The translations under genes were made by a program, and so were the position numbers. Shown here piece after piece: positions 418 to 18,914 of a DNA stretch of 18,914 nt. The notes below the pieces were generated by a model. The model saw nothing but the letters and a program-made list of their open reading frames with translations, had not been told where the DNA came from and did not search any database. Within the stretch, counting starts at the first letter, position 1; each line of letters starts with the position of its first letter. Origin of the DNA: Candidatus Thorarchaeota archaeon. Lineage in GTDB: Archaea > Asgardarchaeota > Thorarchaeia > Thorarchaeales > Thorarchaeaceae. Location of the stretch: the NCBI GenBank assembly GCA_004524445.1, contig SDNP01000043.1:1-18914 (forward strand), given 5' to 3'.

Positions 418-426
418 CGATCTCAC

Positions 427-801: not shown

Positions 802-812
802 CCCAATTTCAC

Positions 813-852: not shown

Positions 853-865
853 TCTAGCTCTCGAG

Positions 866-878: not shown

Positions 879-987
879 TTGCCCCAAAAGTCAAAGCTTC
901 CCCAAATCGGAAAAATTGTCAGATTTTATACCAGCATACTGAATCCTTCGCATAATATGCCGGCATCATCAGCAGACGCTAATGTTT

Positions 988-1764
988 TCAAACCATCAGT
1001 TTTCTCGCAAATGTAATGTATCCTGTGTGTCCCACCATCCATGTGGGAGGACGTGTTTTGCCCTCTCTTACCATTAACTCGCGCTCCAGAATCTCTAATG
1101 TTTTAACCATGCCCCACTTTCCCTCTTCTCCCAATTCCTTGCAGGTCTTCATCACTTGTTCGATTGTTGGGCTGTAACTCACAACAAATCGACTGGGTTT
1201 GAGGGCAACATGAGCCTCTTTCACTGCCAGCCAAGGCGTAGCTAAATCAAAAACGACAGCATCAACATCTCGTTCCTCAATTCCATCTAGTACATCTTTG
1301 TTGTACATTGTGATGCGGTCCATATCAGCGAATCGTTTCAGATTCTTCTGTGCCCGATTGTACATATCTTCCCTGACTTCGTATGTGTAGACATGCCCCT
1401 CTGAACCAACGATTCTTGAAAGAACCCAGGTCAGAGAGCCCGATCCTGTCCCAGCTTCAACAACACGAGAGCCGGCACATATTCCCGCCTCGTTCACAAT
1501 CGTGCCCGCATCCTTTGGATAGATGATTTGAGTTGCTCTTCCCATGGAGATTTGAATATCATTCTGGCTTGGCCTATGAATCTGAAATATGGTTCCGGAG
1601 TGGCTTTCGACTTTGATGCCATATGGACGCCCAATAATATCATCAAATTCGATTATCCCCTTATTCGAATGAAATTTTGCGCCTGCTTTCACTTTTCTTA
1701 TCCAGTTTCTTTTAACGTCCAAGAAAATGAACACATTGTCGCCGTCTTCAATTGTGGTTGGCAT
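988..1764 (-). CDS. trmI: tRNA (adenine-57/58-N1)-methyltransferase
   Basis: TQIIYPKD, SAM-binding VVEAGTGSGSLT, FDLATPW, SYSPTIEQV and C-terminal TRP...VGHTGYITFARK, all typical of GCD14/TrmI. Confidence 0.95.
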   Translation of the reverse strand: MPTTIEDGDNVFIFLDVKRNWIRKVKAGAKFHSNKGIIEFDDIIGRPYGIKVESHSGTIFQIHRPSQNDIQISMGRATQIIYPKDAGTIVNEAGICAGSRVVEAGTGSGSLTWVLSRIVGSEGHVYTYEVREDMYNRAQKNLKRFADMDRITMYNKDVLDGIEERDVDAVVFDLATPWLAVKEAHVALKPSRFVVSYSPTIEQVMKTCKELGEEGKWGMVKTLEILERELMVREGKTRPPTWMVGHTGYITFARKLMV

Positions 1765-1888
1765 ACTTGATGGATTCAGGAAAGGGTGTTTTGAGTCTTG
1801 CTAACGGAACAAGGATATGACTCAGATTATAGCCTCCCACTACAAAGCTTTATTCGGCTACGACAAAACGAGCCATGAAGGGAACAGC

Positions 1889-4057: not shown

Positions 4058-4114
4058 CCACCCAGCATGAATGGCCTTATAAGGAGTGGATTTTGCCTTG
4101 AAACTGGTGTCAAA

Positions 4115-4471
4115 ATGAGCAAAGAAGATATTCGCCCTCCTGTGAACCTTAAACTATCTTCCATGACCGATTTAGCTAGGATGCTTGTTTCATGGTCTCA
4201 AAGAGATCGTCCCGCAAGCATGCTGTACTTCGAACACGAGGGGAAGCACGTTTACGGTACAATGATTTCAAACCATGGTTACTACGAATACTATGGTATG
4301 CCTCTATGGATCTACTATGAGGCTGATGAACCACCTAAAGGCAATTTTCTAGCATACAAGGCTCGTCCAAAGGAATCGCTCAAATTCGTCGATGCATTTG
4401 AATCTGAACCAATGATTGTGCATTTGCCCATTATTAGATTGGCTGAGAAGCTCGAGATATTGGATATTTAG
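4115..4471 (+). CDS. Conserved archaeal hypothetical protein (resembles small TACK/Asgard 'cren' proteins)
   Basis: N-terminal VNLKLSSMTDLARML, aromatic-rich beta strands and C-terminal LPIIRL, a pattern recalled from crenarchaeal hypotheticals. A TTATAA box lies near 4077-4082 before ATG 4115; the ORF is open from 4067. Confidence 0.65.
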   Translation: MSKEDIRPPVNLKLSSMTDLARMLVSWSQRDRPASMLYFEHEGKHVYGTMISNHGYYEYYGMPLWIYYEADEPPKGNFLAYKARPKESLKFVDAFESEPMIVHLPIIRLAEKLEILDI

Positions 4472-4492
4472 GCAATACCCCATCTTCAGATT

Positions 4493-4963
4493 TCATCTTT
4501 CTTTTGATGACCAGAAGGACATTGATGCGTCCTTCAGCCAAGACTTTAGATCCTGTAAAATCAGACCATGATCAAAGGCCAAATCATCTGGAATTAAGTC
4601 TTTTAGATTTCTCCATTCTGCGGCAGCCGCATCATCTCCACCCTTCACGTCCCCGTTTAGGCTTCTGCCAACAAAGACAACCGATATGTTATGCGCTCGA
4701 GGGTCTCGGTCGGGGTCACTGTACACCCCAAGGATGTCCACTAATTTGATATCCAATGAGGTTTCTTCTTTGGCTTCCCTGATTGCCGCATCTTCTACCC
4801 TCTCATTGTATTCCACGAACCCTCCCGGAAATACCCATTGCCCCTTAAAGGGCTCATTTGCCCGCTGAATCAGTACAACCCGATTCCCGTCAGTAATCAC
4901 AACATCAACTGTTGGATTAGGATTCTGCCACTCACTTTTTTCTCTGGGCCTGTTTTTTGTCAT
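4493..4963 (-). CDS. Nudix hydrolase (ADP-ribose pyrophosphatase / MutT-like)
   Basis: Nudix box GGFVEYNERVEDAAIREAKEETSL plus YSDPDRDPR, GDDA and LAFDH motifs. Start is ATG 4963 or 5002. Confidence 0.92.
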   Translation of the reverse strand: MTKNRPREKSEWQNPNPTVDVVITDGNRVVLIQRANEPFKGQWVFPGGFVEYNERVEDAAIREAKEETSLDIKLVDILGVYSDPDRDPRAHNISVVFVGRSLNGDVKGGDDAAAAEWRNLKDLIPDDLAFDHGLILQDLKSWLKDASMSFWSSKER

Positions 4964-5056
4964 AGATTTTCCCTCTTTCTGTGAGGTAACTTTCTCTGCC
5001 ATAACTTATTCGGATATTGACAGAGGACTTTTGTGACCTTTTTCTATATCACTGGC

Positions 5057-5335
5057 ATGACTGGGGATATTGATGAGTCTCCACCTTCTTGCGCGATAAC
5101 CATGCTGGGAATGATTGTGGTTGCATTCCCCGCCGCAATGATTGTGATATGGATTGTATTGATTGATGTGAATGACCTGATTGATCTCTTTGTCGTCATA
5201 CTCAGTTTTGTGCCTATTATTGCACTTACAACGCGTGCTGCTTGGTGCGCTACAAAACGTACAAAGAAATGGATTGCTCATTTAGATGAGTCTCAATCAA
5301 GTGAAGAAATTGACTTTGCTGGTGAAGACGAATGA
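5057..5335 (+). CDS. Small membrane protein with two predicted TM helices
   Basis: Hydrophobic stretches MLGMIVVAFPAAMIVIWIVLI and LFVVILSFVPIIALTT, then a basic segment and an acidic tail. The ORF is open from 5033. Confidence 0.6.
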   Translation: MTGDIDESPPSCAITMLGMIVVAFPAAMIVIWIVLIDVNDLIDLFVVILSFVPIIALTTRAAWCATKRTKKWIAHLDESQSSEEIDFAGEDE

Positions 5336-5384
5336 CACGCGAAATGCTTCAGTTGCCTGAAGAAGGACAGCATTATGGCGAATA

Positions 5385-6482
5385 CTAGTACATCTCTCGT
5401 GGTGAAGCTCTAAGGAAATTTGCTATGAATACGCTAGCGTATAATAGGAATGCTAGCCAGATTATCAGAGTCACAATGAGCAGGTCAGTTTTGAAGAAAA
5501 GTTCGACTACAAGAAACATACCAACGATGACAATGTTAGAAGCTCCTCCAAGTGTAGTATCATTTTCAACCCCAAGCAACTTCTTTACCAGAGTGAGAAT
5601 GACAACAACTCCTAGAGAAACCCAGTTTATGTACTGATTGAAGAGATCTGACCGGTCTAGAAAGGGTATTGTTCCCAATGGCGTTGGAACAGGCGGCAAA
5701 TAGAGCGATATGAAGATAATGAAAATAACTGCCTCTGCAATCCTAATCCATTTTGTAGGCGTTGGCGTATACACCTCTCCGTAGACTCCCCTGTCATATT
5801 CTTGGGCTGCAAAATATAGGAAGTAAACGGGTGCCCCAAAGCTAAGAGAGTTCACCAGACATTGGGCAATCCCGTATACGATTTTCACCCAAAAGGAGCT
5901 CCATGTTGCAAGTATCTCCTGCCAAACCAGCACATACTCTGGAATAAATTGGAGCAGTATGATTGCAGGAAGTATACATAGGGCGATAGCAATCAGAACC
6001 GCCAAGGCTGACGCCAATTTGCCCCCTCCAAGTTTTCCGACTCCAACTCTATAGAATACTACTCCTGCAACATATAGTCCTCCAAGAATTGCAAGTGGTG
6101 GGGTAACAATAGGCAGCACGAAAAACGCAAGAACAAATGCAGCATTTGTTCCATAAAACACCCTCCATCTCAAGGGTACTGAACTGGTGGAGTCATGCAT
6201 ATGGTGGACCGTATTAGCGAATCGGTATCTAGAGTTGTAGATTATTCCCATCCACGGTGCAGAAAACACGAGGGGAGTGACCACGTAGTGAAACATTATG
6301 TTGTATAGTGGCTCGGTAAACGGACTCAGCGTGAACGGCAAAATGAACATGAGTAGGAAAAAGTAGACTGGCCCCAAAATTGCAGTGGCAACGACGACCA
6401 ATCTTGTATGCATCCAGTCCGGACTCAACTCAATCACGCTGGTATCTTGGATTCCGCATTTAATATAAGTGTCCTCGACCAA
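5385..6482 (-). CDS. Uncharacterised polytopic membrane protein (about 9-10 TM segments)
   Basis: 365-aa ORF with repeated long hydrophobic segments. The true start may be TTG 6428 or ATG 6413, since a TTATAT box lies near 6463-6468. No family recognised. Confidence 0.75.
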   Translation of the reverse strand: MVEDTYIKCGIQDTSVIELSPDWMHTRLVVVATAILGPVYFFLLMFILPFTLSPFTEPLYNIMFHYVVTPLVFSAPWMGIIYNSRYRFANTVHHMHDSTSSVPLRWRVFYGTNAAFVLAFFVLPIVTPPLAILGGLYVAGVVFYRVGVGKLGGGKLASALAVLIAIALCILPAIILLQFIPEYVLVWQEILATWSSFWVKIVYGIAQCLVNSLSFGAPVYFLYFAAQEYDRGVYGEVYTPTPTKWIRIAEAVIFIIFISLYLPPVPTPLGTIPFLDRSDLFNQYINWVSLGVVVILTLVKKLLGVENDTTLGGASNIVIVGMFLVVELFFKTDLLIVTLIIWLAFLLYASVFIANFLRASPREMY

Positions 6483-6505
6483 GGGGATGTAAGGTATTCT
6501 AGGAG

Positions 6506-7303
6506 TTGTGCGCTGTGTATAAGAGAAAACTTGCTGCTGCCAAATTTGTCAGAAAGAGCAGGCTAATCCTTGGACTGGATCTTGTAGCAAATACAACACT
6601 CTATAGAAGCGATGCTCGGATTATAGAGAAGAAAGGTCTGGCAGAGAAGGCGCGAAATACAATCCGACAGACCTCTGACCACGTACTCGCTTACAAATTC
6701 AACCGTCATCTCGTATTGCCCCTTGGTCTTTATGACGAAATTCCTGATTTGATTGATCTCATTCATGACCTAGGCTTGACAGCTATCATGGATTGCAAAA
6801 TCAACGACATCGGGCATTCCAACGAAATAATCGCCAAATATTATCTAGATGCTGGATTCGATGCTATCATTGTGAATCCCTTTGTGGGATGGGATAATGG
6901 CCTTGATTCAGTCTTCAAAGTTGCTACTGAACGGTCCAAAGGAATCATCACTCTCTGCTATATGTCTCATCCTGCAGCGGAAGAGGGATATGGCCTAAGG
7001 GTTGCACTAGATGAGAAGGGAAAGAAGTGGGAGCCACTATACCTCGAATTTGCTCGACGTGCAAAGAAGTGGGAAGCTGATGGAGTAATAGTCGGAGCAA
7101 CATATCCAGAACGAATAACCGAGGTCAAGGATATTCTTGGTGACGCTGTTCCAATAATATCGCCTGGAGTTGGAGCTCAGGGTGGATCTGCTAGTAAAGC
7201 AATAAAGGCGGGAGCAGAATATGTCATTGTTGCTCGTTCAATAATCAATGCGGATAATCCTGGTGAAGCGGCGCGGACGTTGGCCGAGGAAACCATGCAG
7301 TAA
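6506..7303 (+). CDS. pyrF: Orotidine 5'-phosphate decarboxylase
   Basis: LILGLD, AYK, catalytic DCKINDIGHS (DxKxxDI), VGAT, SPGVGAQGG and IVARSI. GTG 6515 is an alternative start after an AGGAG RBS. Confidence 0.95.
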   Translation: MCAVYKRKLAAAKFVRKSRLILGLDLVANTTLYRSDARIIEKKGLAEKARNTIRQTSDHVLAYKFNRHLVLPLGLYDEIPDLIDLIHDLGLTAIMDCKINDIGHSNEIIAKYYLDAGFDAIIVNPFVGWDNGLDSVFKVATERSKGIITLCYMSHPAAEEGYGLRVALDEKGKKWEPLYLEFARRAKKWEADGVIVGATYPERITEVKDILGDAVPIISPGVGAQGGSASKAIKAGAEYVIVARSIINADNPGEAARTLAEETMQ

Positions 7304-7318
7304 GTTAGAAAAGCAAAA

Positions 7319-7334
7319 TGCACAGAAGTGTACA
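7319..7334. promoter_or_regulatory. Candidate operator TGCACA-N4-TGTACA (distal copy)
   Basis: TGCACAGAAGTGTACA in the pyrF-aminotransferase intergenic region; matches the copy at 7414. Confidence 0.45.
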
Positions 7335-7413
7335 TATTAGGTCGGAAGAGACCTCTATCTGCCTCTCATAATTAGAAACAGATAAAGGGAACAGGCATCC
7401 ATTTTTTAGTAGT

Positions 7414-7429
7414 TGTACATAAATGTACA
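7414..7429. promoter_or_regulatory. Candidate operator TGTACA-N4-TGTACA (proximal copy)
   Basis: TGTACATAAATGTACA, about 30 nt before the aminotransferase start. Confidence 0.5.
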
Positions 7430-7461
7430 TGACGACATCGTAATTGATGGAGCGAGTTCTA

Positions 7462-8736
7462 ATGGCAGATAAAGACGGTTACAGTTTTTCGAGTTGGACT
7501 TCGTTTATTGAAGAATCTCAAATCCGAGCACTCCTAAAGTATCACGTGGAGTACTATTACGCCGGTGGAAAACCCGGAATAATCCCCACAGATACTTTTG
7601 CTGACATCATGGCTGATTTGAGCGAAACATATAAAGAAAATCCAAAGATGGCGCTGGAAGATTTTAATTATGGGCCGACAGGAGGGCAGCCTTGGTTCCT
7701 AAAGACCCTTGCTCGAAGACTTTGTGATGTTCGCGGAATACCTATTGATTGTGATGATGAAGAATGGGAACTAGTATCCATTACGAATGGCTCTCAACAG
7801 GCTCTATACGCTCTGCTCGATACTCTCATTGACCCTGGTGATGTAATAATCACTCCATCACCAGCATATCTTGGGTTCTTGGTTCCCGCCGTCAAACTTG
7901 GCGGGAGAATCATAACCATCCCAACCGATCTCGATGGTATAATCCCCGAATATGTTGAAAAAGCGGTGCATGTTTCAAAAATGAAGTTTGGCAAGGTTCC
8001 AGATATTCTCTATGTGGTACCAGATTCAGATAATCCAAAGGGAACGACAATTCCTATGAAACGCAGAAAGGCGCTCTTTGATATCTGTGAGAGCCACGAT
8101 ATGTTATTGATTGAAGACTCCGCTTATGCCGAAATTCAATTCAAGAAGAACCCCAAGCCGATTAAGACACTTGACAAAGAGAACAAAAGAGTAGCATACC
8201 TCGGTACGACAAGCAAAGAGGCTGCAGTCCTTAGAGTCGGGTACTCTGTGATGCCAACTAATGTTCGAGAACAAGTTCTGAAAGATAAGGGCTACCTTGA
8301 CTTGTGTACATCCACACTAGTTCAGCGTATCTTGAATGAGTACTACATGAACCACATTGACGAGGCCATGAAGGTTGCAATTCCTGAGTACGAAAAGAGA
8401 TACAAGGCTATGGCAAAAGCAATGGACGCCTCATTCCCTGCCGGCAAGAGAACTGACCCAACGGGCGGCTTTTTCATCTGGTGGGAGAGCGAAAAGCCCG
8501 ACTTCAATAGCAAGAAATTCATGATGGATGTCGCGATTCCAAACGATATCCTCTATGTTCCTGGAGGTCCATTCTACCCCATCACAGGATATGACTTGAC
8601 CGACAATGGAAACGATTTGAAACCAACATCGCCGCAGCCTAATACCATGAGGCTAGGTTACTCTTATGCTGAACCTGACGTAATATCCGAAGGTATTGAG
8701 AAACTGGGCAATCTTCTCTCAGAAGAACTAGACTAG
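7462..8736 (+). CDS. PLP-dependent aminotransferase class I/II (LysN/ARO8-like 2-aminoadipate or aromatic transaminase subfamily)
   Basis: SQIRALLK...AGGKP, NYGPTGG, ITNGSQQAL, DNPKGTT, IEDSAY, PLP lysine in GTTSKEAAVLRVGY, GGFFIW and MRLGYS. ATG 7462 follows a GGAG RBS; the ORF is open from 7444. Confidence 0.92.
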   Translation: MADKDGYSFSSWTSFIEESQIRALLKYHVEYYYAGGKPGIIPTDTFADIMADLSETYKENPKMALEDFNYGPTGGQPWFLKTLARRLCDVRGIPIDCDDEEWELVSITNGSQQALYALLDTLIDPGDVIITPSPAYLGFLVPAVKLGGRIITIPTDLDGIIPEYVEKAVHVSKMKFGKVPDILYVVPDSDNPKGTTIPMKRRKALFDICESHDMLLIEDSAYAEIQFKKNPKPIKTLDKENKRVAYLGTTSKEAAVLRVGYSVMPTNVREQVLKDKGYLDLCTSTLVQRILNEYYMNHIDEAMKVAIPEYEKRYKAMAKAMDASFPAGKRTDPTGGFFIWWESEKPDFNSKKFMMDVAIPNDILYVPGGPFYPITGYDLTDNGNDLKPTSPQPNTMRLGYSYAEPDVISEGIEKLGNLLSEELD

Positions 8737-8745
8737 AAATTCATG

Positions 8746-8769
8746 GCACCAGAACTCGCTTTCTGGTGC
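8746..8769. terminator. Inverted repeat between convergent genes (possible bidirectional terminator)
   Basis: GCACCAGAA-ctcgct-TTCTGGTGC, a perfect 9-bp stem followed by T-rich TTTCTTCTTTT on the + strand. Confidence 0.6.
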
Positions 8770-8782
8770 ACGTTTCTTCTTT

Positions 8783-10501
8783 TCACACCATGAAGTTAAC
8801 GAAGAGCGTTGCTCCATTCTTCATGTCAGCCATATAGGCTCGTTTATACGGCCCAAATAGATCACTAAGCCCTGCATTTAGCGCCCATTCAATCCATGAC
8901 CATGAGGACTCCTGTGTGTTCTTTCCCTTTGCATATCTACCATATGCCCAAGACAGATATGTTTCAATCTTGAATTTCAATTCTAGTTTTTCTTCCTCCA
9001 CATGCTCCTCAGTTTCCTCGATTTCATTCTCAAGATTGTGTAATGAATCTAAGAGATCGTCATGAGTCCTCCAGATGATTCCTGCAAGATTTTGGATTGC
9101 CTCATTCATCTCATCATAGTTCTCTTTGTTTCTGCTCCGTGTGATCTTTCCCATTGCCCGAAACATCTCCCCTCTGTGGAGTACAGGAATATTATCTCTC
9201 TTAAGCTGGTTGGCCATGTCTTCACCCCACGGTGTGTTGAAGAAAACTCGAGGATATTTCACAAACATGGGGAATGGTATTTCTAATTTTCTTGCAATCG
9301 GTATGACTTGGGAATAATATGCAGTTTCTCCGGGCCCCCCTGCATGGGCGATGACAGGAATCGAGGAATCGATTGCGAATTGCCGAGAATCAACTCTGGG
9401 TGATAGAAAGGTAGCATGGTCCGATAGGTCTGGAGACTGAGCATCGACTTCTAATCGGATCTCTTCGCCGCAAAGGGGACATTCTCCCCTGAGTATTGCA
9501 TTGGAGCCATCCAGTTCATAGAATAGTTCTGTTCTTGCTCGATTACATGATTTCGCTTGGCATTCATAGAAGAATGGCACATAAGAGGTATCTCTTCCTC
9601 CCGCTCCTGGTTCAAAGCCGTTATTCCGAATCTTTTTTGTCGCTTCATCATGGATTCGAACAAAATCCTCTCGTATCTCTCTGGATAGAAGGAATTCCAT
9701 ACCAAGTGCCCATAGCTCACGTATCTCATCATCAGAAGCTGGAACTAGAGGTAATCCTAGATTACCTACAATGTTCACAATCCTTGCGATAATTCTCTGT
9801 GCCCATTCTCCTAGGGTATCCGAGTTAAGAAATGCTTGTCTGGTCACGGAGAGGGCATATTCAAGCCTTTCATCAAAGAGCGTTCGTGTATTTCCCTCAA
9901 GTACTTTGAATAAGGGACTATACCCCGCTCTAATACTCTGCTCTATTTCCTCATACCAATGATACTCAGGTAAAGGCACAACACTTACAGGTGAGAATTC
10001 GTATTCCTGCGGGATTGGAATACTCACTATATTTCCACTTGGTCCCATCAGGGGCGTTCTTGTATGGGTCAGTTCACTCTGAACTATGTCATAATCAGCA
10101 ATACAATAGAAGGGAACGAGAGATGATTCTTCAGTCGAATTCAGACGCGCCAATCTTTCTGCTGTGACCGCCTTATTCAGAATATAGCAGGGGCCACCCA
10201 GAACAATGCTTTGATGAGCGGCCTCAACAGCACCCTGATTTAGTTTTTCAATAGTTCTCTTAACTTTCGGACTCAGACATCCTAGCTTGCGGTTGATTCT
10301 TGTCAAGGCTGCCTGCAATCTAACGATTCTATCATCAGTATGCCACTCCTGCTTAGCATACTTTCTTCGCAACTTAACTGCACGGTTCCTCAAGTCATTC
10401 ATCATAATAGGTGGATCATTGTAGAGTTCAGATGCCAACCCCTCGTGTTTGGATTCCCAAATATAGTCTAAGTATGCTTGGGTGATTATCCTCTTGGTCA
10501 C
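8783..10501 (-). CDS. bshC: Bacillithiol biosynthesis cysteine-adding enzyme BshC homologue
   Basis: AVEAAHQSIVLGGPCYILNKAVTA (compare BshC tGqQaglfgGPlYtiyK), VPFYCIADYD, FLSPRVDSR and HAGGPGETAYYSQ (compare GGPgEiaYwaQ). Size 572 aa; directly downstream of bshA. Confidence 0.85.
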   Translation of the reverse strand: MTKRIITQAYLDYIWESKHEGLASELYNDPPIMMNDLRNRAVKLRRKYAKQEWHTDDRIVRLQAALTRINRKLGCLSPKVKRTIEKLNQGAVEAAHQSIVLGGPCYILNKAVTAERLARLNSTEESSLVPFYCIADYDIVQSELTHTRTPLMGPSGNIVSIPIPQEYEFSPVSVVPLPEYHWYEEIEQSIRAGYSPLFKVLEGNTRTLFDERLEYALSVTRQAFLNSDTLGEWAQRIIARIVNIVGNLGLPLVPASDDEIRELWALGMEFLLSREIREDFVRIHDEATKKIRNNGFEPGAGGRDTSYVPFFYECQAKSCNRARTELFYELDGSNAILRGECPLCGEEIRLEVDAQSPDLSDHATFLSPRVDSRQFAIDSSIPVIAHAGGPGETAYYSQVIPIARKLEIPFPMFVKYPRVFFNTPWGEDMANQLKRDNIPVLHRGEMFRAMGKITRSRNKENYDEMNEAIQNLAGIIWRTHDDLLDSLHNLENEIEETEEHVEEEKLELKFKIETYLSWAYGRYAKGKNTQESSWSWIEWALNAGLSDLFGPYKRAYMADMKNGATLFVNFMV

Positions 10502-10512
10502 TCAATTCTCTC

Positions 10513-11685
10513 CTATGTTTGAACCGCTTCTTCGAAGACTTGTTCATATTTCGGCACAATTATGTCCGCTGAAAAATTTTCCTTGACCCTCTTTCTTCCA
10601 GCTCGTCCGAGTTTCTTTAATCTTGCATCATCATCAAGAAGGGTAACAATGGCATGAGCAAATTCGTCTTTTTCATAACCTTCGGTGACCCAACCGTCTT
10701 TTCCAGGTCTGACCAATTCCGGTATTCCGCCAGCCGGAGTAGTGATGACTGGCAATCGTGACGCCATTGCCTCCAAGATTACTAGAGGCATCCCTTCCTG
10801 CAAAGAATTCATCAAGAGCATATCCGAGGAGCACATAATCTCATGCACATTACTTCTGATTCCTAGTAGGTGTACCTTCTGGCAAAGATCCAGTTCCTCT
10901 ATTTTACGTTCGACTTCCACTCTCTTCGGTCCATCTCCTACCAGAACAAGCCGGGTGTCTGGGTTTTCATCCACCACCATCTTCATTATTTCTACTAACT
11001 CAACAACACGCTTAACTGCGCGGAAGTTTGAAACATGAAGTAATATCCTCTGATCGGGATTGATTGCCTCTGCATCCTCCTCTTTTCTCACAGATACACA
11101 ACCACTTTCAACCACAAGCCGTGTGCCCTCTTCCCGTTTGTACTTCTCTATATCTATGAAGTTTGGAATGACATGAATTTCTCTCTCAATACCTAATTCT
11201 GTGTACGCGCTCTCTCGAAGATATTCAGCTACAGTGGTGACGGCATTTGCTTGTTGAACGGTATGTTTTACTACTGGCTGGTATGCCGGGTCTAGACCCA
11301 GAGAATGTACATCTGAACCATGCATAGTTATGACATAAGGTATCCCAACAATTTCTCTTGCCATGTATGCAGACAACGCGTGAGGAATGGCGTAGTGCGA
11401 GTGAATCAAATCCAACTTAGAGTTATGAGTGACTTGAACCATCTTTGACGCAAGTGCCATCGAATAAGGGGGACAGATATCCTTGAATAATGGATAGTCT
11501 ATGGTATCGACAAGATCTACATATGCTCCTCGGGTGTCCTCCCACATCAAAGAGAAAGGTCTTTGATATGTTACAAAGTGGATTATGTGACCTCTCTCAA
11601 CAAGATGTCGTCCCAATCGAGTGGCAAGATATCCTGAACCACCAACTGAAGGATATAGATTGACTCCTATTTTCACCCTTGTCAA
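10513..11685 (-). CDS. bshA: N-acetyl-alpha-D-glucosaminyl L-malate synthase BshA (GT4 glycosyltransferase)
   Basis: KIGVNLYPSVGGSGYLATRLG, YPLF..PPYSMALASKM, HSHYAIPHA, TMHGSDV and HVSNFRAVKRV are BshA-specific blocks. GT4 motif EGMPLVILEAM is present. Confidence 0.93.
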   Translation of the reverse strand: MTRVKIGVNLYPSVGGSGYLATRLGRHLVERGHIIHFVTYQRPFSLMWEDTRGAYVDLVDTIDYPLFKDICPPYSMALASKMVQVTHNSKLDLIHSHYAIPHALSAYMAREIVGIPYVITMHGSDVHSLGLDPAYQPVVKHTVQQANAVTTVAEYLRESAYTELGIEREIHVIPNFIDIEKYKREEGTRLVVESGCVSVRKEEDAEAINPDQRILLHVSNFRAVKRVVELVEIMKMVVDENPDTRLVLVGDGPKRVEVERKIEELDLCQKVHLLGIRSNVHEIMCSSDMLLMNSLQEGMPLVILEAMASRLPVITTPAGGIPELVRPGKDGWVTEGYEKDEFAHAIVTLLDDDARLKKLGRAGRKRVKENFSADIIVPKYEQVFEEAVQT

Positions 11686-11792
11686 CTCTGGTATCGTATC
11701 AAGACTACCTGCCTTTAAGGTGCTTGGTGCGGGAAGACGGACCTTCTAAGCATTAGTAAAACTTGAATAGTGACCAGCTCCGATTAATCAGT

Positions 11793-12455
11793 ATGGCGGA
11801 TTTGGGTTCTATTCTTGTGATTGCTGCGCATCCCGATGACGAGTGCCTGGGCGCTGGAGGTACAGTTAGAAATCATACTAGGGCTGGTGTTCCAGTAGAT
11901 CTCCTTTGCTTAACCGGAAACGACATCCGAAATGAGGAGCTGGCTAGCGCTAGTGATATATTGGGTGTCAGAAATTTATACCCCTCCAACCGCGATGACT
12001 TTGATATCGATAGGAGTCTTTCCGACTCAGTAGTTGAGGTTATCCTTGAGTCCCGTCCCACTGCTATAATCACACACTCTGACGAGGATTACAATCGTAA
12101 CCATAGAATATGTGCAGAGATTGTTAACGACTCCATTGAATGGGCATCGCACAAGACAATGTATGAAGAACCTCATAGAGTGGAACAAGTACTGCAGATG
12201 GAAATCAATACCCTCCATTCGCATCCTCACTTTATAGTTGACATCACAGCATCTTACGATGAGTCTTTACTGGCACTCAAGAAATATGAATCTCAACTAT
12301 CAAAAGCTGATGAGTTCTATTTGGATTTCTATGATGCACGAACACGACTGAGGGGTGTTCAAGGCGCTTGTTCACGCGCAGAGGCATTCACTGTTTCGAC
12401 TCCTCGCCATGCAGGTCCCTTTTACCAAAAGAATAGCCGCGAACTATTGATTTAG
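11793..12455 (+). CDS. bshB: PIG-L/LmbE-family deacetylase, probable BshB (GlcNAc-malate deacetylase)
   Basis: ILVIAAHPDDECLGAGGT, RNEELASASDILGV, VDIT..YESQ and RG..AEAF. Divergent from bshA. The second motif reads DYNRNH instead of DxHPDH. The ORF is open from 11763. Confidence 0.8.
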   Translation: MADLGSILVIAAHPDDECLGAGGTVRNHTRAGVPVDLLCLTGNDIRNEELASASDILGVRNLYPSNRDDFDIDRSLSDSVVEVILESRPTAIITHSDEDYNRNHRICAEIVNDSIEWASHKTMYEEPHRVEQVLQMEINTLHSHPHFIVDITASYDESLLALKKYESQLSKADEFYLDFYDARTRLRGVQGACSRAEAFTVSTPRHAGPFYQKNSRELLI

Positions 12456-12883
12456 GCTTGCTTGTCTCCGCCCTCTACCTTCTTCCTTCTAGCTGCTAAC
12501 AAGGCTTTGAGTTCGCCCATCATCGTCATTCCGCCGCCTCCGCCACTAGGTGGCCCTCCGCCTCCTGCACTGGCTGGTGCCGGACCTGGCGCAGCACCAA
12601 CGCTTGGTGATGTTGGTGGACTGGGTGTGGATGACCCTACTTCTGCTGCAGATTCTGCAGCAACACTACTTGCTCTTGAGCTCAGAGAAGATATTCGGGA
12701 ATCCATGCTACTGACATTCTCTTCTAACGAGCTAATTCGGTTCTCAAGCTGACCTATAGCATCAACAATTTTTCCCGTTATGATGCTGACTACTTCACCA
12801 AGTTGACGTAGCTTTTCTTCCGTTGGGTCCTTTAAGGCCCATTCAAATTCTTCCATGATGAAATCGTCATCGTCTTCAGCCAT
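12452..12883 (-). CDS. Coiled-coil / proline-glycine-rich protein with C-terminal WH2/C/FAB-like helix; putative actin regulator
   Basis: Order of parts: MAEDDDDFIMEEFEW, heptad coil, STPSPPTSP..APGPAP..GGGGPPSGGGGG, MMGELKALLAARRKKV. ATG 12883 has a GGAG RBS and a TTTATA box near 12926-12931. CDS status is well supported; the function is inferred. Confidence 0.7.
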   Translation of the reverse strand: MAEDDDDFIMEEFEWALKDPTEEKLRQLGEVVSIITGKIVDAIGQLENRISSLEENVSSMDSRISSLSSRASSVAAESAAEVGSSTPSPPTSPSVGAAPGPAPASAGGGGPPSGGGGGMTMMGELKALLAARRKKVEGGDKQA

Positions 12884-12966
12884 TGGACTTGGCTCCGTTC
12901 TTTTTACAGTTTGATTTGTTTGCGCTATAAAGCTTGTTTGCACAAGACCAATCTATTCTCCGCTTA

Positions 12967-14346
12967 TTATTTCTGGGAAGCGATTGTCTTCCTCACGACT
13001 TGCTCACACGAGTCCAATATTTCATGAACCCGATCATCAGTGGTTGCTTCGCACGTTATTCGTATGACCGGTTCAGTTCCGGATGGTCTTACAAGAACCC
13101 ACCCATCATCTAGAACCAATCCGATGCCATCTACTGTAATAACATCTTGAATTCCATCTATCTCTTTTGGTAATATCCCCGAGAGCTCCTGCATGACCAC
13201 TTTCTTCTTATCATTTGCGACTTGAAGCTTTGTTTTCAATAGTGGGTATATCGGAATCTCAGAAACCAGCACTCCAAAACTCTTTCCTGTGTGCGCCATC
13301 ATCTCAAGTATCTTGCATGCAGCCAAGAAAGGTTCTGGCGCCATATGAAATGAAGGGAATATGAATACTCCACACGCTTCTCCACCCATGATACCGCCCA
13401 GCTCCTTTAACTTCACAGCAACTTGGATATCGCCAACAGGGGTTCGAACGATATCTCCCCCAGTCTTCTGAACTATTTCATCGAGAACCTTTGAACTATC
13501 AACGGTGGTAACAACTGTGCTTCCTTTCTCTTTCTTCAGAAGTGTCTTTGCCAGTAGGGCGATAGTTCTGTCCCCTCTGACAACCTCTCCCGTTTCCGTG
13601 ACAAACACACCTCTATCTGAATCTCCATCATGAGCTATCCCCAGATCTGCTCCCTGTTTCCTCACCATATGAATAAGGGCCTGAAGTGTTTCTTCTTCGG
13701 GTTCAGACTCTCTTCCAGGAAAATGCCCATCTGGCTGTCCGTTTATTGTTACAACCTTGCACCCTAGCTCCCTCACTAGATAGGGCGTTAACACGCATGC
13801 TGCTCCATTTCCTGGATCAACAATCACCTTGAACTCCTTCCGGTTTATTGCTTCACTATCACAGTGATCTATGATGTCAACGATGTGTTTCTCCACTGCA
13901 TCACCCAATACAGCTTCTTGACCTAATTCGTTCCAAGGTGCTACTTTAAATCCTCCAGATGTGTAGAGTGTTTCGAGTTCTTTCTCCATCTCTGATGTAT
14001 ATCCCATGCTGTCTCTATGCCAGAATTTGATGCCTGTGTACTCTGGGGGATTATGCGAAGCCGTCACCATAACGCCCGCATCAAATCCCATTTTCTTGGT
14101 CAGATATGCTAATGTCGGTGTTGGAACTATGCCCAATCGGGTAACATCAACGCCTGTGGACAGAACCCCTGCTACGAATGCATCGACGACCATTTTCCCA
14201 GTAGTTCGAGTATCCCTTGCAATGAGGATTTTTCCTGTTTGAAGATATGTGCCTAATGCCTTCCCCAATTTCATTGCCATATCTAAGGTGAATTCGGAAC
14301 CATACACTTTCCGTACACCCGTTGTTCCAAACAAATCGTTAGCCAT
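12967..14346 (-). CDS. glmM: Phosphohexomutase (phosphoglucosamine mutase or PMM/PGM)
   Basis: LFGTTGVR, phosphoserine loop TASHNP, metal loop DGDSDR, sugar loop GGEACG and VRPSGTEP. Substrate specificity cannot be resolved by eye. Confidence 0.85.
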   Translation of the reverse strand: MANDLFGTTGVRKVYGSEFTLDMAMKLGKALGTYLQTGKILIARDTRTTGKMVVDAFVAGVLSTGVDVTRLGIVPTPTLAYLTKKMGFDAGVMVTASHNPPEYTGIKFWHRDSMGYTSEMEKELETLYTSGGFKVAPWNELGQEAVLGDAVEKHIVDIIDHCDSEAINRKEFKVIVDPGNGAACVLTPYLVRELGCKVVTINGQPDGHFPGRESEPEEETLQALIHMVRKQGADLGIAHDGDSDRGVFVTETGEVVRGDRTIALLAKTLLKKEKGSTVVTTVDSSKVLDEIVQKTGGDIVRTPVGDIQVAVKLKELGGIMGGEACGVFIFPSFHMAPEPFLAACKILEMMAHTGKSFGVLVSEIPIYPLLKTKLQVANDKKKVVMQELSGILPKEIDGIQDVITVDGIGLVLDDGWVLVRPSGTEPVIRITCEATTDDRVHEILDSCEQVVRKTIASQK

Positions 14347-14468
14347 TCTTTTCACATGTCTTTTATCTCAACTTTGAAACAAAAAGGTAACTGAGCGCAG
14401 GGCGAAGTATCCAGAATACGAATATATGCGATATCTAACTTCTACAGGAAAAAAGCAGAGGTCATTGG

Positions 14469-15311
14469 ATGCCACACTTCGAATTCGAGGAATGCAAGCT
14501 TCATTATGTTGACTTTGATGATCGCCTAGAAGATAATGATGCTCCTGTCCTGCTCTTCATCCACGGAGCGGGGTCATCTCATCTGATTTGGACTTTACAG
14601 TTACTGAAACTTAAGGAAGCACACAGAGTCGTTGCCTTGGACCTCTCTGGTCATGGGCTAAGTGACAGAGCTGAAAAAACATCCTCCATTGAACACGGGT
14701 ACACTGACCAAGTTCATGCCCTCATAACATATCTAGATATAGATAATTTCATCCTTGTTGGCCACTCAATGGGCGGAGGTATAGTGATGTCTTACTGCCT
14801 ACGTGATGATGTGTCTCCTCCTTGTGCCATTGTGTTAGTGGGCACGTCTTCAGACCTGAGTCTTCGAAAACTGGCTAAGGGGCTCATCATCGAAGCCTTT
14901 GAAGACCACAAACCTCCTTATGGAATTGAGACCCTCGATGAAGACTTCAAGACCTTCTCTCTTGCCAAGTTTCAAGACGCTGTGACAAAATTCGACGCCA
15001 AGAGCATTTTCCGGGACTTGGACATCTGTGATGACTTCAATATTTCTGACAGAGTTGACGAGATCAAGGTACCTGCCCTAGTCGTTGTTGGAGATGATGA
15101 TGATATCGTTCCGCCTGGTGTTGCATGGGAGCTCGAAAAGGCGCTTCCTCGAGCAGACATTGCAGTCATCAAAGATGCTGACCATTCCCCTATGGTTCAG
15201 CAGCCCGAGGTCTTCAATCGGTTACTCAGTAAGTTTGTGAAGTGGGCTCAGGGCGATCTCGACCGTCGTCGACTGAAGGGCACAAGTGTGATTGTGGACA
15301 AAAAGGAGTAG
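14469..15311 (+). CDS. Alpha/beta-fold hydrolase
   Basis: LLFIHGAG, ALDLSGHGLS, nucleophile elbow GHSMGG, acid in GDDDDIVP and His in ADHSPM. Confidence 0.92.
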   Translation: MPHFEFEECKLHYVDFDDRLEDNDAPVLLFIHGAGSSHLIWTLQLLKLKEAHRVVALDLSGHGLSDRAEKTSSIEHGYTDQVHALITYLDIDNFILVGHSMGGGIVMSYCLRDDVSPPCAIVLVGTSSDLSLRKLAKGLIIEAFEDHKPPYGIETLDEDFKTFSLAKFQDAVTKFDAKSIFRDLDICDDFNISDRVDEIKVPALVVVGDDDDIVPPGVAWELEKALPRADIAVIKDADHSPMVQQPEVFNRLLSKFVKWAQGDLDRRRLKGTSVIVDKKE

Positions 15312-15354
15312 TAGAAAACCGGAACACTCTTCCAAAATCCTAGGGCCAACGAAA

Positions 15355-15387
15355 CCTTATTAGATGCCTGCGCATCTAACGCGTTAG
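15355..15387 (+). promoter_or_regulatory. Putative TATA box plus two overlapping inverted repeats upstream of the Rab-like gene
   Basis: CCTTATTA at 15355-15362, TTAGATGC-N4-GCATCTAA at 15360-15379 and the perfect palindrome CTAACGCGTTAG at 15376-15387. Confidence 0.5.
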
Positions 15388-15434
15388 GTTAAGCCCAATC
15401 TTTTCACCCAAAACGAGACTCGGAATTGAATCAG

Positions 15435-15983
15435 ATGAGCAGTACGTACGATTACCTATTTAAAGTGGTCATTCTCGGCGAAGGCGCGGTAGGAAAAACC
15501 GCAATCGTCACACGCTTCTCTCATGGCTTCTTCCGCACCGATTACAAGACCACGATTGGCTCTCAGTTTGCTGTCAAGAACATCGATGTACATGAGGGTA
15601 GCGAGAACCTAACTGTGAAGCTGCAAATATGGGACGTAGCTGGGCAAAGCAGATTTCAGATATTGAGGCCTATGTACTATCGTGGGTCAAGCGGTGGTGT
15701 ACTGGTTTTTGATGTGACTCGACGCCGAACATTTCTTCTTCTGGATGAATGGCTCAATGAGCTGGAAAGAGCGGTTGGGAAGAAGATTCCCTTAGTGCTG
15801 GTTGCAAACAAGACAGACTTGCCCGACCGTGTAGTTGAGCCAAGAGAGGGCAAGGAATTTGCAGACGCACGCGACATGCCTTACGTGGAGTCATCAGCAA
15901 AGACGGGCGAAGGGATCGTTGACATCTTCGAAAATTTAGGAAAAACCCTCGTTAGTACAAGACGCTCAAGCGACCGATTTTAG
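15435..15983 (+). CDS. Rab-like small GTPase (Ras superfamily, eukaryotic signature protein)
   Basis: G1 GEGAVGKT, G2 YKTTIG, G3 WDVAGQ, G4 NKTD and G5 SSAK. RabF-like blocks IGSQF, KLQIW, RFQILR, YYRGS and LVFDVT, with N-terminal YDYLFKVV. No C-terminal Cys. Confidence 0.95.
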   Translation: MSSTYDYLFKVVILGEGAVGKTAIVTRFSHGFFRTDYKTTIGSQFAVKNIDVHEGSENLTVKLQIWDVAGQSRFQILRPMYYRGSSGGVLVFDVTRRRTFLLLDEWLNELERAVGKKIPLVLVANKTDLPDRVVEPREGKEFADARDMPYVESSAKTGEGIVDIFENLGKTLVSTRRSSDRF

Positions 15984-16085
15984 TACGACCTCCTATCCTT
16001 TTTGTTCATGGAGGACAAGACTTAGATTGGTGCGACCACTGCAATTTATGACATTGTCCATCAATAAACAGCCAGCTGAGTAGAC

Positions 16086-16676
16086 ATGACCGATCGAAGT
16101 GAGCTCTATCCAGTAAATACAATCCCTCCTCTTACGTGGGCTATGCAGTTATACTTCAAGAAAGACTTCAAATTCAAAGAGCCGGGGACAATAGAATTGG
16201 TCTTTCCCGCAGGCGATCATAAAGAGCTAATGCAGAAAAAAGGTGAACATAGAGTGCATCTATGGTTTACTGACCAGAAGGTGTTTGTAAGAGCTCGATG
16301 TACTCATAGCAGTAAATGTGACTTCAATGGTACAAGGATACAGGGGGGTGATCGTGAGGGCTTGATGAATATCCCTTGGGAGGGCACTGATGACCGATCA
16401 TTCTTCCGTGCCATCACGAAGTGGTTGCTCAGAATCAATCTTGAATTTGTGCCGCTAATTCGCTCCCTAACTACTGTCTGTGATCGATATGTCCAGATTC
16501 CTATGACTACTAAATACGGGCGAACATTCGAAAAATTTGACGAGTATAGACGTAATCGGTGGCCAAAGGATGCCAAACCGAATGACCGGCCTCGCTTTCT
16601 GGAGGAAGTACTTGTCCGGGTCTGTTTCTGGATTCAATCTGCAGCAGATGTTGGCGCTTTACATCCTCCTGACTAA
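16086..16676 (+). CDS. Hypothetical soluble protein (196 aa)
   Basis: Long ATG-started ORF filling the gap between Rab and the protease, with globular composition. A TTTATG box lies near 16045. No family recognised. Confidence 0.75.
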   Translation: MTDRSELYPVNTIPPLTWAMQLYFKKDFKFKEPGTIELVFPAGDHKELMQKKGEHRVHLWFTDQKVFVRARCTHSSKCDFNGTRIQGGDREGLMNIPWEGTDDRSFFRAITKWLLRINLEFVPLIRSLTTVCDRYVQIPMTTKYGRTFEKFDEYRRNRWPKDAKPNDRPRFLEEVLVRVCFWIQSAADVGALHPPD

Positions 16677-16790
16677 ACCAACGCGAGCCTCTGTCTTTTT
16701 TCTACTCCGCTTGTCCTCTCTGTCGAGGACACTTCATCTTCGATATTGTTCATCGTGCATGAAGTACCAATCGGGAGATTTCTAGGTATA

Positions 16791-16815
16791 TTTATATGTT
16801 AGTTTACATTTTCCC
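16791..16815 (+). promoter_or_regulatory. TATA box (TTTATATG) plus downstream motif TTTACATTTTCCC
   Basis: TATA at 16791-16798 and 13-mer at 16803-16815. The same 13-mer at the same spacing occurs at 18883. Confidence 0.6.
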
Positions 16816-16855
16816 AAACACTATGCCTGAGGTCTAGTTCGAAAGGCCTCTGGAT

Positions 16856-18826
16856 GTGAGAGATTTGAAAAAACGCGGATACAAGTATCTAGCTTGCTCT
16901 TTTGCGTTCTTATTCTTAACAGTGGCAATTGCCGGTCTAGTTGTGGCCCAGCCAAAGGGCACCACAATTGTCACCCATAGCTGGGACCAGAACGGTAACA
17001 AAATTGTTGATGAATTTGAGCCAAAATTAGCAGAGCTAAAACAAAACGAACGCGTATCTGTGATTGTGACTGCCTCTCAAAGCTTGGAAGATATGCTACC
17101 AATGCTGGATGCAGATATCAGATACAGATACGACGCAATTGGAGCTCTATCCATAGAACTTCCTCGTCGAAATTTGGACATTCTGAGTACTTCCCAGGAT
17201 GTCTTCAGAATATCAGACGCACATCTCGAAGTGCAAGCAACCCTTGATAGTGGACTGCCGATAGTGCAGGTTCCAGAGGCCTATCAATCCTACAATTATC
17301 GAGGTGAGGGAATCGTCATTGCTGTTTTGGACACGGGAATTGACAACACTCATGTTGACTTGGATGATAATGACGCCTACAACGCCTACAAGGTCATTGC
17401 CTTCAGGGATGTTGTAAACGGTCAAGATGATTTCTCGACCCCGGTTGTAGCATATGATGATAATGGACATGGCACCCACTGTTCTAGCATCGCTGCCGGA
17501 TCCGGTGAAGGCGACTCACGATATCGTGGAGTTGCATATGCGGCACAGCTTGTTGGAGTAAAAGTTCTTGATGCAGACGGTGGTGGAACCCTAGAGGGTG
17601 TTCTTGCTGGCATGCAGTGGATAATTGATTACCGGACCACGTATAGCATTGATATCGCCTCAATGAGCCTATCAACCAACCCCTCCAGTTCATGCGATGG
17701 TACAGATGAGATTTGTTTGATGGCTGACTCCATAATGGAGAACGACATCGCCCTCTTTGTTGCTGCCGGCAATCATGGTCATCCTGAACGTCTGTATGGC
17801 TACAACACCATTGGTTGTCCGTCAGCATCCAGGTATGCTATTACAGTAGGATCTGTTAATGATGACGGAACTCATTCAAGCTTCAGTAATGAGGGCCCAA
17901 CCGGTGATGGTAGAATCAAGCCTGAGATTTGTGCTGCTGGCTCATCGATAACAGCAGCCGAGGCCAATAGTGGAAGCGGTTACGTCACGTATAGTGGGAC
18001 GTCTATGGCAACACCCATGGCTGCCGGAATTGGCGCACTACTTCGACAGGCTGACTCTAGCCTATCTTCCTTTAATGTCAAGGAGGTGCTCAAGAGTACC
18101 GCCATGGATATGGGTGAGACCGGCGAAGACAACACATATGGCTGGGGTATCGCACAAGCAAAAGCTGCCTTAGACTATGTCACTGGTGGCGGAACCGAGC
18201 CTACTGACAATCCTCCTACTGCATCAATCTATGCTCCTACAGAAGGAGAAACAGTGAGTGGTACGTATAGAGTCAAGGTTTCAGCCAGCGACGACAATGG
18301 CGTTTCCACAGTCGAAGTGAACATCGACGGAGGGAACTGGATTGACATAACTAATAATGTTGATTCGGATGGCTACTACTACTATGACTGGGACACCACC
18401 GGTGTAGCAGATGGCGCCCATACAATCAATGCTCGAGTCACTGACTCAGCAGGTCAAACAGCTTCTGATAGTGTTGGAGTTACAGTGAACAATGGTGGAG
18501 GTAGCACTGGTGATACCATGCATGTTGCAGACATCTCCTACTCTGCCGTCTATCGAGGTCCTAACGCATGGTTGACCATTGAAGTCACAATTGTTGACTC
18601 GAATGGGAACTCAGTTAGCGGTGCTGATGTCACTATAAGCTTGGAATACCCTGACGGAAGCATTAGTACCTATACTGCAACCACAGGATCTAGTGGTGTT
18701 GCCATTTTTGATTTTGGCAAGTCTCCGAAGGGTACCTATACTGTTAGCGTGACAGGCGTATCTCATAGCAGTTACACATATGATGAAACTGCTAACGTCG
18801 AAACATCTGAAACCTTTACAATTTGA
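16856..18826 (+). CDS. Secreted subtilisin-like (S8) serine protease with propeptide and two C-terminal Ig-like domains
   Basis: Signal peptide (KKRGYK plus hydrophobic core) and I9-like propeptide. Triad VLDTG / HGTH / GTSMATP with oxyanion AAGN. C-terminal Ig-like repeats (PTASIYAP..VSG..WDTTGVADGAHT; MHVADI..VSGADVT). No C-terminal anchor. Confidence 0.95.
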   Translation: MRDLKKRGYKYLACSFAFLFLTVAIAGLVVAQPKGTTIVTHSWDQNGNKIVDEFEPKLAELKQNERVSVIVTASQSLEDMLPMLDADIRYRYDAIGALSIELPRRNLDILSTSQDVFRISDAHLEVQATLDSGLPIVQVPEAYQSYNYRGEGIVIAVLDTGIDNTHVDLDDNDAYNAYKVIAFRDVVNGQDDFSTPVVAYDDNGHGTHCSSIAAGSGEGDSRYRGVAYAAQLVGVKVLDADGGGTLEGVLAGMQWIIDYRTTYSIDIASMSLSTNPSSSCDGTDEICLMADSIMENDIALFVAAGNHGHPERLYGYNTIGCPSASRYAITVGSVNDDGTHSSFSNEGPTGDGRIKPEICAAGSSITAAEANSGSGYVTYSGTSMATPMAAGIGALLRQADSSLSSFNVKEVLKSTAMDMGETGEDNTYGWGIAQAKAALDYVTGGGTEPTDNPPTASIYAPTEGETVSGTYRVKVSASDDNGVSTVEVNIDGGNWIDITNNVDSDGYYYYDWDTTGVADGAHTINARVTDSAGQTASDSVGVTVNNGGGSTGDTMHVADISYSAVYRGPNAWLTIEVTIVDSNGNSVSGADVTISLEYPDGSISTYTATTGSSGVAIFDFGKSPKGTYTVSVTGVSHSSYTYDETANVETSETFTI

Positions 18827-18860
18827 TGAGGGGTCTCCCTCATCCCCTCTTTTTTTATTT
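18825..18860 (+). terminator. Hairpin plus poly-T terminator after the protease gene
   Basis: GATGAGGG-gtct-CCCTCATC (18825-18844), or GAGGGG (18828-33) pairing with CCCCTC (18844-49), followed by T7 at 18850-18856. Confidence 0.7.
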
Positions 18861-18870
18861 TCCGAAGACA

Positions 18871-18895
18871 TATATAAGATGCTTTACATTTTCCC
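18871..18895 (+). promoter_or_regulatory. TATA box (TATATAAG) plus second copy of TTTACATTTTCCC; promoter of the next gene (possible ATG at 18901, cut by the window edge)
   Basis: TATA at 18871-18878, 13-mer at 18883-18895, then ATG AAA TAT GGA at 18901. Confidence 0.55.
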
Positions 18896-18914
18896 GAACT
18901 ATGAAATATGGAAA

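Follow-up and report, generated by a model that had tools for sequence, protein, structure and literature searches.

The P0001 Gene and Its Promoter

The window analysed here is a stretch of 18,914 nucleotides from a Candidatus Thorarchaeota archaeon (assembly GCA_004524445.1, contig SDNP01000043.1, positions 1 to 18,914), and its minus strand carries at 12,452–12,883 a gene that translates into the 143-residue protein P0001, single-copy in the genome of the window. In Thorarchaeota (Thor), the gene lies between a phosphohexomutase gene and a bacillithiol-type gene cluster. Its stop codon, TAA, occupies 12,452–12,454, in a 4-nucleotide overlap with the stop of the convergent PIG-L deacetylase gene (11,763–12,455, plus strand). 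A first-pass annotation, made from the letters of the sequence, had described P0001 as a miniature WASH/WAVE/VASP-like protein and a candidate actin nucleation or elongation factor, built of an acidic-Trp start, a coiled coil, a Ser/Pro/Gly linker and a Gly run followed by an amphipathic helix and a basic cluster. Every string quoted in that description is present in the protein, namely AEDDDDFIMEEFEW, EEKLRQL...RISSL, TPSPPTSP, APGPAP, GGGGPP and MMGELKALLAARRKKV.

The true start of the gene is the ATG at 12,883 and not the upstream GTG at 12,943. The frame opened by the GTG is not a gene, because the homologues begin at the ATG and because a conserved promoter block and a Shine-Dalgarno sequence precede it. 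As read from the sequence, an archaeal TATA box (TTTATA on the minus strand, 12,926–12,931) is positioned about 45 nucleotides upstream of the ATG, inside the conserved block ACAAnnTTTATAGC, and a Shine-Dalgarno-like GGAG (12,893–12,896, minus strand) is found 9 nucleotides before the ATG. The block recurs at this distance in about 28 of the 31 Thor loci compared; at the remaining three, the script chose a wrong upstream ATG. A GGAG, GAGG or GGGG site lies 7–12 nucleotides before the ATG, and at the same position in other Thor loci. Translated in frame, the promoter block accounts for the spurious, conserved ‘MQTxFIA’ extensions at the N-terminus of some database gene calls. The conserved TATA block and the Shine-Dalgarno site show, therefore, that the P0001 gene has a promoter of its own, although it is always found directly downstream of the phosphohexomutase gene. 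The gene is real, and both of its ends are strongly constrained.

Anatomy of the Protein

An AlphaFold2 monomer model of P0001, based on an alignment of 33 sequences, contains a helix at residues 3–17, a long helix at 20–81 with a predicted local distance difference test (pLDDT) score of 89–98, a disordered stretch at 82–120 (pLDDT 42–46) and an end helix at 121–138 (pLDDT about 79). Together with the translation and the alignments, this model bears out the four-module layout of the first-pass annotation. The acidic/aromatic N-terminal helix DDDDFIMEEFEWALKD covers residues 1–18 (12,830–12,883, minus strand); its EEF core is found family-wide, and its Trp and acidic run are specific to Thor. 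Residues 20–81 (12,641–12,826, minus strand) begin with the conserved head segment PTEEKLRxLGEVVSIIT, which passes into the long coiled-coil helix. The following tether, residues 82–120 (12,524–12,640, minus strand), is rich in Ser, Pro, Ala and Gly and closes with the Gly run; its prolines never stand more than two together. Residues 121–138 (12,470–12,523, minus strand) form the C-terminal ‘ELK’ helix, which corresponds to MMGELKALLAARRKKV and has a hydrophobic stripe with a basic cluster after it.

Conservation is concentrated at the two ends, in a pattern far from what chance would give. Among 33 Thor homologues, the blocks FIMEEFEWALKDPTEEKLRxLGEVVSIIT at the N-terminus and MMGELKALLAARRxK at the C-terminus are invariant or nearly so, with F13, W15, A16, L17, D19, P20, L28, G29, I35 and T36 unchanged in the first and M122, E124, L125, K126 and L128–R133 in the second, while the coil and the linker are free to vary in sequence and length. 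A Pfam search of P0001 at E ≤ 0.01 returned only sub-threshold coiled-coil matches (BLOC1_2, 19.6 bits; DUF7310, 17.3 bits). Against the PDB, the full-length family profile matched mainly parallel trimeric coiled coils, such as adhesin stalks, reovirus sigma-1, P22 gp26, Lpp and the haemagglutinin HA2, a likeness which suggests that the long helix may form a trimer.

An Asgard Family of Single-Copy Proteins

Judged from profile searches, P0001 is the Thor member of a hitherto undescribed single-copy family that is present in most Asgard lineages. A word-indexed homologue search gave 306 homologues at E ≤ 0.01, with Thorarchaeota assemblies as the source of almost all, and when 1.84 billion representatives were searched exhaustively with a single sequence, only 18 matches came up. 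In a profile search that covered 400 genomes of the phylum, the gene turned up in 82 of the 85 genomes that belong to the window's family, in most of them as a single copy, and full-length relatives turned up in several other families; P0001 itself scored 5.6e-51 against the Thor profile and 4.1e-39 against the pan-Asgard profile. With the broader profile at E ≤ 1e-8, and among genomes at least 85% complete, presence was counted for each genome family (labelled f1–f33). The gene was present in f1 (20/20), f2 (1/1), f22 (19/19), f21 (2/2), f14 (7/7), f15 (3/3), f16 (5/6), f28 (1/1), f29 (4/4) and f30 (2/2). A profile of the C-terminus only adds members of 175–205 residues, with P/Q-rich linkers of about 100 residues, in f4, f6, f11, f32 and f26. 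Neither the broad nor the C-terminal profile found a member in f8 (0/10 and 0/6), f3, f5, f13 or f33. The family was seen only in Asgard genomes and metagenome proteins, the named database members all being Asgard except for one ‘Bathyarchaeota’ label on a 1.3-kb contig. A feature-based protein-atlas search for P0001 returned unnamed Asgard clusters only. The only longer form, a 472-residue fusion of a phosphomannomutase with the P0001-type protein (P0189, from a 2.1-kb metagenome contig, E 3.3e-25), was set aside, as it is probably a read-through of two adjacent genes.

The features common to the family are an N-terminal head helix with EEF/LGE(V/I)V, a long coil, a disordered Pro-rich linker and a C-terminal ELK helix within a length of 125–205 residues, and P0001 has them all. 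The non-Thor members share this layout, and many of the Loki-type ones carry polyproline tracts directly before the C-terminal helix NPVSLRGAIMGELKELFAKRKK, for example GAPPPPPGAPPPPPG, PPPPPG repeats, and three copies of PPPP(P)GR in the Lokiarchaeum ossiferum orthologue. The first-pass annotation had staked its reading on conservation of the protein across Asgard genomes and of the C-terminal helix among homologues. The first agrees with the distribution described above, and the helix proved to be the most conserved part of the protein.

The ELK Helix on Other Proteins

Across the family, the constant core of the end helix can be written R..[ILM]..ELK.[LA][FL].[KR].[KR]. Searching the genomes with the C-terminal profile alone brought up this helix on proteins of quite other kinds, newly among them Arf/Rag-like and Ras-like GTPases, a Sec23/24-like protein and an integrase-domain protein. 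In several genomes of one Loki-type family, it stands at the extreme C-terminus of Arf/Rag-like GTPases of 412–490 residues (L110:184–1608, plus; L112:1492–2727, minus; L122:297–1541, plus; L123:137–1387, minus; L128:151–1623, minus); sequence and Pfam confirm this for four genomes, and frame length suggests more. These proteins have an extra N-terminal domain, a coil, a Lys/Pro-rich linker and then the ELK helix, and their tails read ...RVRVLDELKDLFAKRKKLDI and ...PPPPPQKV...RREIISELKEMFKKRGLVTR. A Ras-like GTPase has the motif in its interior (PATPVSLRGAIMSELKQIL). The motif stands close to the C-terminus in a Sec23/24-like protein with trunk and beta-sandwich domains (L127:84–1643, plus) and in a phage-integrase-domain protein from genome family f10 (GGGGGEPPQSQMGELKALLARRRKMA; L125:451–2241, plus), and it also occurs in a 697-residue protein with a predicted C-terminal membrane-spanning segment, and in a 129-residue protein. 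In most carriers, a Pro-rich stretch precedes it. The integrase-domain protein, with its Gly run and MGELKALLARRRKMA, has the version most like the FAB motif of VASP that was seen.

The ELK helix is, on this evidence, a portable motif and probably one for docking. Its polar Glu-Leu-Lys is invariant across orthologues and unrelated carriers alike, which fits protein recognition better than lipid binding. The latter is the core of a second explanation, in which the basic amphipathic helix at the C-terminus would bind anionic archaeal lipids in the manner of MinD or FtsA and thereby anchor a coiled-coil stalk, small GTPases that have no lipid anchor, and a Sec23/24-like coat protein. We consider this quite unlikely, and a plain membrane anchor is the less likely use of the helix. 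The terminal position after a flexible linker, the hydrophobic stripe and the polybasic tail would suit such a role, as would the fact that most of the other carriers resemble proteins which act at eukaryotic membranes (Arf/Rag-like and Ras-like GTPases and the Sec23/24-like protein). However, a Glu-Leu-Lys that is invariant throughout the phylum is unusual for lipid-binding helices, and the hydrophobic moment is low (0.05–0.10 over 18 residues on the Eisenberg scale) because the arginines fall on the hydrophobic face. The Thor helix, moreover, has no aromatic or bulky anchor residue beyond Leu and Met, and the carrier with a predicted membrane-spanning segment would need no anchor. The membrane-targeting helices of MinD and FtsA are alike in being terminal helices with hydrophobic and basic residues behind a flexible linker, and differ from the ELK helix in these same respects: the invariant E-L-K, the low moment and the occurrence of the motif on a protein with a predicted membrane-spanning segment.

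Another possible user of a terminal helix is the endosomal sorting complex required for transport (ESCRT). The MIM1 consensus, which binds the MIT domain of the ATPase Vps4 and so recruits it, is (D/E)xxLxxRLxxL(K/R), and an end helix of this type would make P0001 an ESCRT accessory factor. A short C-terminal helix after Pro-rich disorder is indeed the layout of ESCRT-III tails, and the genome encodes two Snf7-family proteins. Nevertheless, the family has an invariant Glu where MIM1 needs Arg, the tails of the two ESCRT-III proteins of the genome are acidic and gave no positive score against four motif profiles, and no Snf7 match was found on P0001, so that this proposal is highly improbable.

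Comparison With Actin Regulators

The first-pass annotation had placed P0001 with the actin-assembly factors, and this reading deserves the closest comparison. In its present form, it holds that P0001 is an Ena/VASP- or WH2-like assembly or bundling factor: the clustered helices would bind the hydrophobic cleft of Asgard G- or F-actin, the polyproline of the Loki-type orthologues would feed profilin-actin, and the protein would act as a stand-alone polymerase, nucleator or bundler. We regard this as possible rather than probable. It draws on the succession of a coil, a Pro-rich tether and a basic amphipathic helix, on the repeated PPPPPG tracts directly before the helix in Loki-type orthologues, and on the f10 protein with GGGGGEPPQSQMGELKALLARRRKMA. 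The presence of a helix after polyproline on GTPase-linked and membrane proteins also corresponds to the eukaryotic use of WH2 modules.

Membership in a known family was not borne out. At E ≤ 0.01, no WH2 (PF02205), WH1/EVH1, VASP_tetra or WAVE/WASH (WHD/SCAR, WAHD1) domain was found in P0001, and six C-terminal pieces gave neither WH2 nor any other Pfam match even at E ≤ 10. Against all PDB sequences, including many WH2-actin complexes, the C-terminal profile matched no WH2, VASP or WASP chain at E ≤ 10, and its matches there were only a designed coil and a capsid protein. Human VASP has its GAB motif at 223–239, its FAB motif at 259–278 and its tetramerizing coil at 343–380 (PMC10340426). 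The FAB sequence, taken from the same source, scored 12.5 bits against the Thor-only helix profile, where the best unrelated peptide among 2.6 million six-frame residues of this genome reached 7.4. Against the all-Asgard profile, however, FAB scored only 7.6 bits with random six-frame peptides at 7.2–8.9, and against the non-Thor profile 6.4 bits with random peptides reaching 9.7. The GAB motif (KLRK) scored -0.6 to 0.1 bits against the motif profiles and has no counterpart in P0001, and the N-WASP sequence (PMC5609757) gave -1.4 to 1.0 bits for its WH2 and about 0 bits for its C helix. It is thus the Gly run and AARR, both derived features of Thor, that produce the VASP likeness, and not the conserved core; this points to coincidence or convergence as its probable source rather than descent.

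The architecture shows the same mixture of likeness and difference. With the EVH2 region of Ena/VASP, P0001 shares a putatively oligomerizing coiled coil and a Pro-rich region, which its Loki-type relatives have as genuine polyproline. In both, a Gly run leads into a helix rich in Met and Leu that closes with ARR(R/K)K; the logic would also be alike, in that several weak binding helices are putatively clustered on flexible arms. The order is reversed, since the coil of P0001 precedes the motif, and there is no match to EVH1, to a GAB/WH2-like KLRK or to VASP_tetra; the family-wide core SLRGAIMGELKELFAKRK gives FAB only a chance-level score, and the orthologue in L. ossiferum was not enriched with Lokiactin, as described below. 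Polyproline of the Ena/VASP and formin FH1 kind, with runs of at least five prolines, is absent from P0001 and present in its Loki-type relatives. Loki profilins have been reported not to bind polyproline, and the Thor profilin to do so only weakly (PMC8410842). The WH2 modules and WASP-family VCA regions (PF02205; N-WASP 420–505, PMC5609757) are likewise short portable helices on many unrelated carriers, often after Pro-rich stretches and with a basic cluster following, but the ELK helix has no LKKV-type motif at WH2 spacing. The acidic-Trp element of P0001 is N-terminal, with its Trp conserved in Thor only, and not a C-terminal Arp2/3-binding tail. Nor would such a tag have an Arp2/Arp3 target here, because the 90%-complete genome has a single actin-family gene (one PF00022 match, a 380-residue actin, 440 bits; the ARPC subunits were not searched).

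The first-pass annotation had also proposed a check of co-occurrence with actin and profilin. The genome of the window encodes this actin and a profilin, and five carrier genomes from other Asgard families, most of them small, all have actins with 70–79% identity to that of Thor. The families f8, f3 and f5, on the other hand, have actins and no detectable member of the P0001 family, so that actin does not generally require the protein. That the family was found only in Asgard, where every carrier genome tested has actin, would suit an actin factor, but the co-occurrence pattern as a whole is uninformative. In the neighbourhood comparison, the P0001 gene was not linked to actin, profilin or gelsolin genes. 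A separate observation concerns two actin loci, L078 (genome G319) and L081 (genome G313), where the match is 30 nucleotides longer than in other Thor genomes and is interrupted by a single in-frame TGA or TAA codon, perhaps through a small insertion or an error in sequencing, or because the stop is recoded.

Published data on L. ossiferum bear on the question more directly. The orthologue there, of 152 residues and 16.14 kDa, is GNAMCCOK_02219, as assigned through gene order and its 24.0-kDa upstream neighbour. In the proteome (Radler et al., Nature 2026, PMC13716822; tables in the preprint 10.1101/2025.11.30.690169), it has a mean log2 value of 18.47, which ranks it at about 380–460 of 3,061 proteins, about 1 log2 unit below the profilin Pro1 and 3.2 below actin. 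Co-immunoprecipitation (Co-IP) with Lokiactin enriched one profilin, five gelsolins and an Arf GTPase (PMC13716822), the last being a different protein without the ELK motif. GNAMCCOK_02219 was absent from every Co-IP row examined, and these reached down to a log2 ratio of -1.06. An orthologue that is well expressed yet absent from the Co-IP argues against stable actin binding, although a weak binder that exchanges quickly could escape detection in this way. The same Co-IP holds an observation on the neighbouring gene: GNAMCCOK_02218 (L085:738–1358, plus strand, genome G138), a protein of 206 residues and 24.01 kDa encoded directly upstream of the orthologue, was significantly enriched (log2 1.36, adjusted p 0.034) and is not discussed in the paper. 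It has a long acidic helical extension and belongs to an Elf1-like Zn-ribbon protein family that adjoins the target gene in two Loki-type families.

Taken together, these comparisons lend the actin-regulator reading of P0001 partial support as an analogy of function and none as membership in a family. Of the earlier proposal that a coil clusters several tethered end helices, the layout is seen and the logic stands; for kinship with WASH, WAVE, WASP or VASP, every test failed or was undecided.

P0001 as a Putative Docking Adaptor

The explanation which we consider most likely, and hold with middling confidence, is that P0001 is a cytoplasmic, multivalent, tethered-docking adaptor and the Thor representative of a pan-Asgard family. 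In this mechanism, the long helix would oligomerize, possibly as the parallel trimeric coil which its profile resembles. The oligomer would bring together several C-terminal ELK helices, each held by a tether of about 40 residues, which in other lineages reaches about 100. With its hydrophobic stripe, invariant Glu-Leu-Lys and basic tail, each helix would then dock in a groove of a conserved and probably acidic partner protein, for which actin is one candidate and the most interesting, and the conserved N-terminal head would bind or localize a second component.

Several points weigh against this adaptor model. Oligomerization and its order are deduced from likeness to known coils; most of the carriers are of a peripheral membrane type, as would also be expected of a helix that binds lipid; and the gene neighbourhood, kept within lineages and different between them, provides no consistent clue.

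Three known systems may serve as the closest working analogies, namely the clustered actin-binding motifs of VASP, the linker and C-terminal peptide of FtsZ, and the tails of the ribosomal P-stalk. In both FtsZ and the archaeal stalk protein P1, the body is oligomeric or polymeric, and a long disordered linker of free sequence and length joins it to a short terminal helix that hardly varies and docks onto partners; multivalency raises the local concentration. P0001 would be alike in its body, its linker of free sequence and its near-invariant end helix. There is no sequence relation to either, the body of P0001 consists of no more than a coiled coil and a small conserved head, and its tail is basic where that of P1 is acidic.

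A bolder and, in our judgement, unlikely extension of the adaptor model would make the ELK helix an Asgard-wide docking motif, the archaeal counterpart of the WH2-type modules. The coiled-coil protein, the GTPases, the Sec23/24-like protein and the membrane proteins would all recruit one cytoskeletal partner through it, most attractively actin or actin-profilin, and P0001 would be a minimal polymerase or bundler that predates the Ena/VASP- and WASP-type factors of eukaryotes. Asgard archaea form dynamic actin-filled protrusions, and the regulators known in them are profilins and gelsolins only, with no nucleator, elongation factor or membrane-to-actin linker identified (PMC13716822). P0001 is small, abundant and near-universal, and its end helix is common to eukaryote-like GTPases and a relative of coat proteins. 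If the partner were actin, P0001 would fill the missing role of an assembly factor; if it were another protein, the ELK helix would mark a new interaction network that links the ‘eukaryotic signature’ trafficking proteins of Asgard archaea.

Gene Neighbourhood

Around the P0001 gene, the Thor loci are well conserved. In the window, a gene for a phosphoglucomutase/phosphomannomutase (12,967–14,355, minus strand) is positioned upstream, and beyond the PIG-L deacetylase gene on the other side are a GT4 glycosyltransferase gene (10,513–11,685, minus strand) and a BshC-like gene (8,783–10,501, minus strand; PF10079, 66 bits). These four genes make up the bacillithiol-type set on the two sides of the target. 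About 28 of the 31 Thor loci share the order mutase, target, PIG-L and GT4, and the others end early or differ at one gene. In Loki-type genomes, the target lies near the Elf1-like Zn-ribbon protein (neighbour family c5) and coiled-coil proteins of unknown function; for two of the Loki-type neighbours, c4 and c9, no homologue was found in the genome of the window, and c5 lies elsewhere in it.

Some other genes of the window may be noted briefly. A winged-helix regulator of the MarR/TrmB type at 37–426 (minus strand) has a weak match to the EAP30/Vps36 family (23.4 bits, below the cut-off), and a HerA-like ATPase of 746 residues is encoded at 1,817–4,057 (plus strand). On the far side of the mutase gene, 2.5 kb from the target, lies the gene of a Ras-family small GTPase (15,426–15,983, plus strand; PF00071, 163.7 bits). 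Downstream of it follow a 196-residue open reading frame without a Pfam family (16,086–16,676) and a subtilase with Ig-like domains (16,856–18,826).

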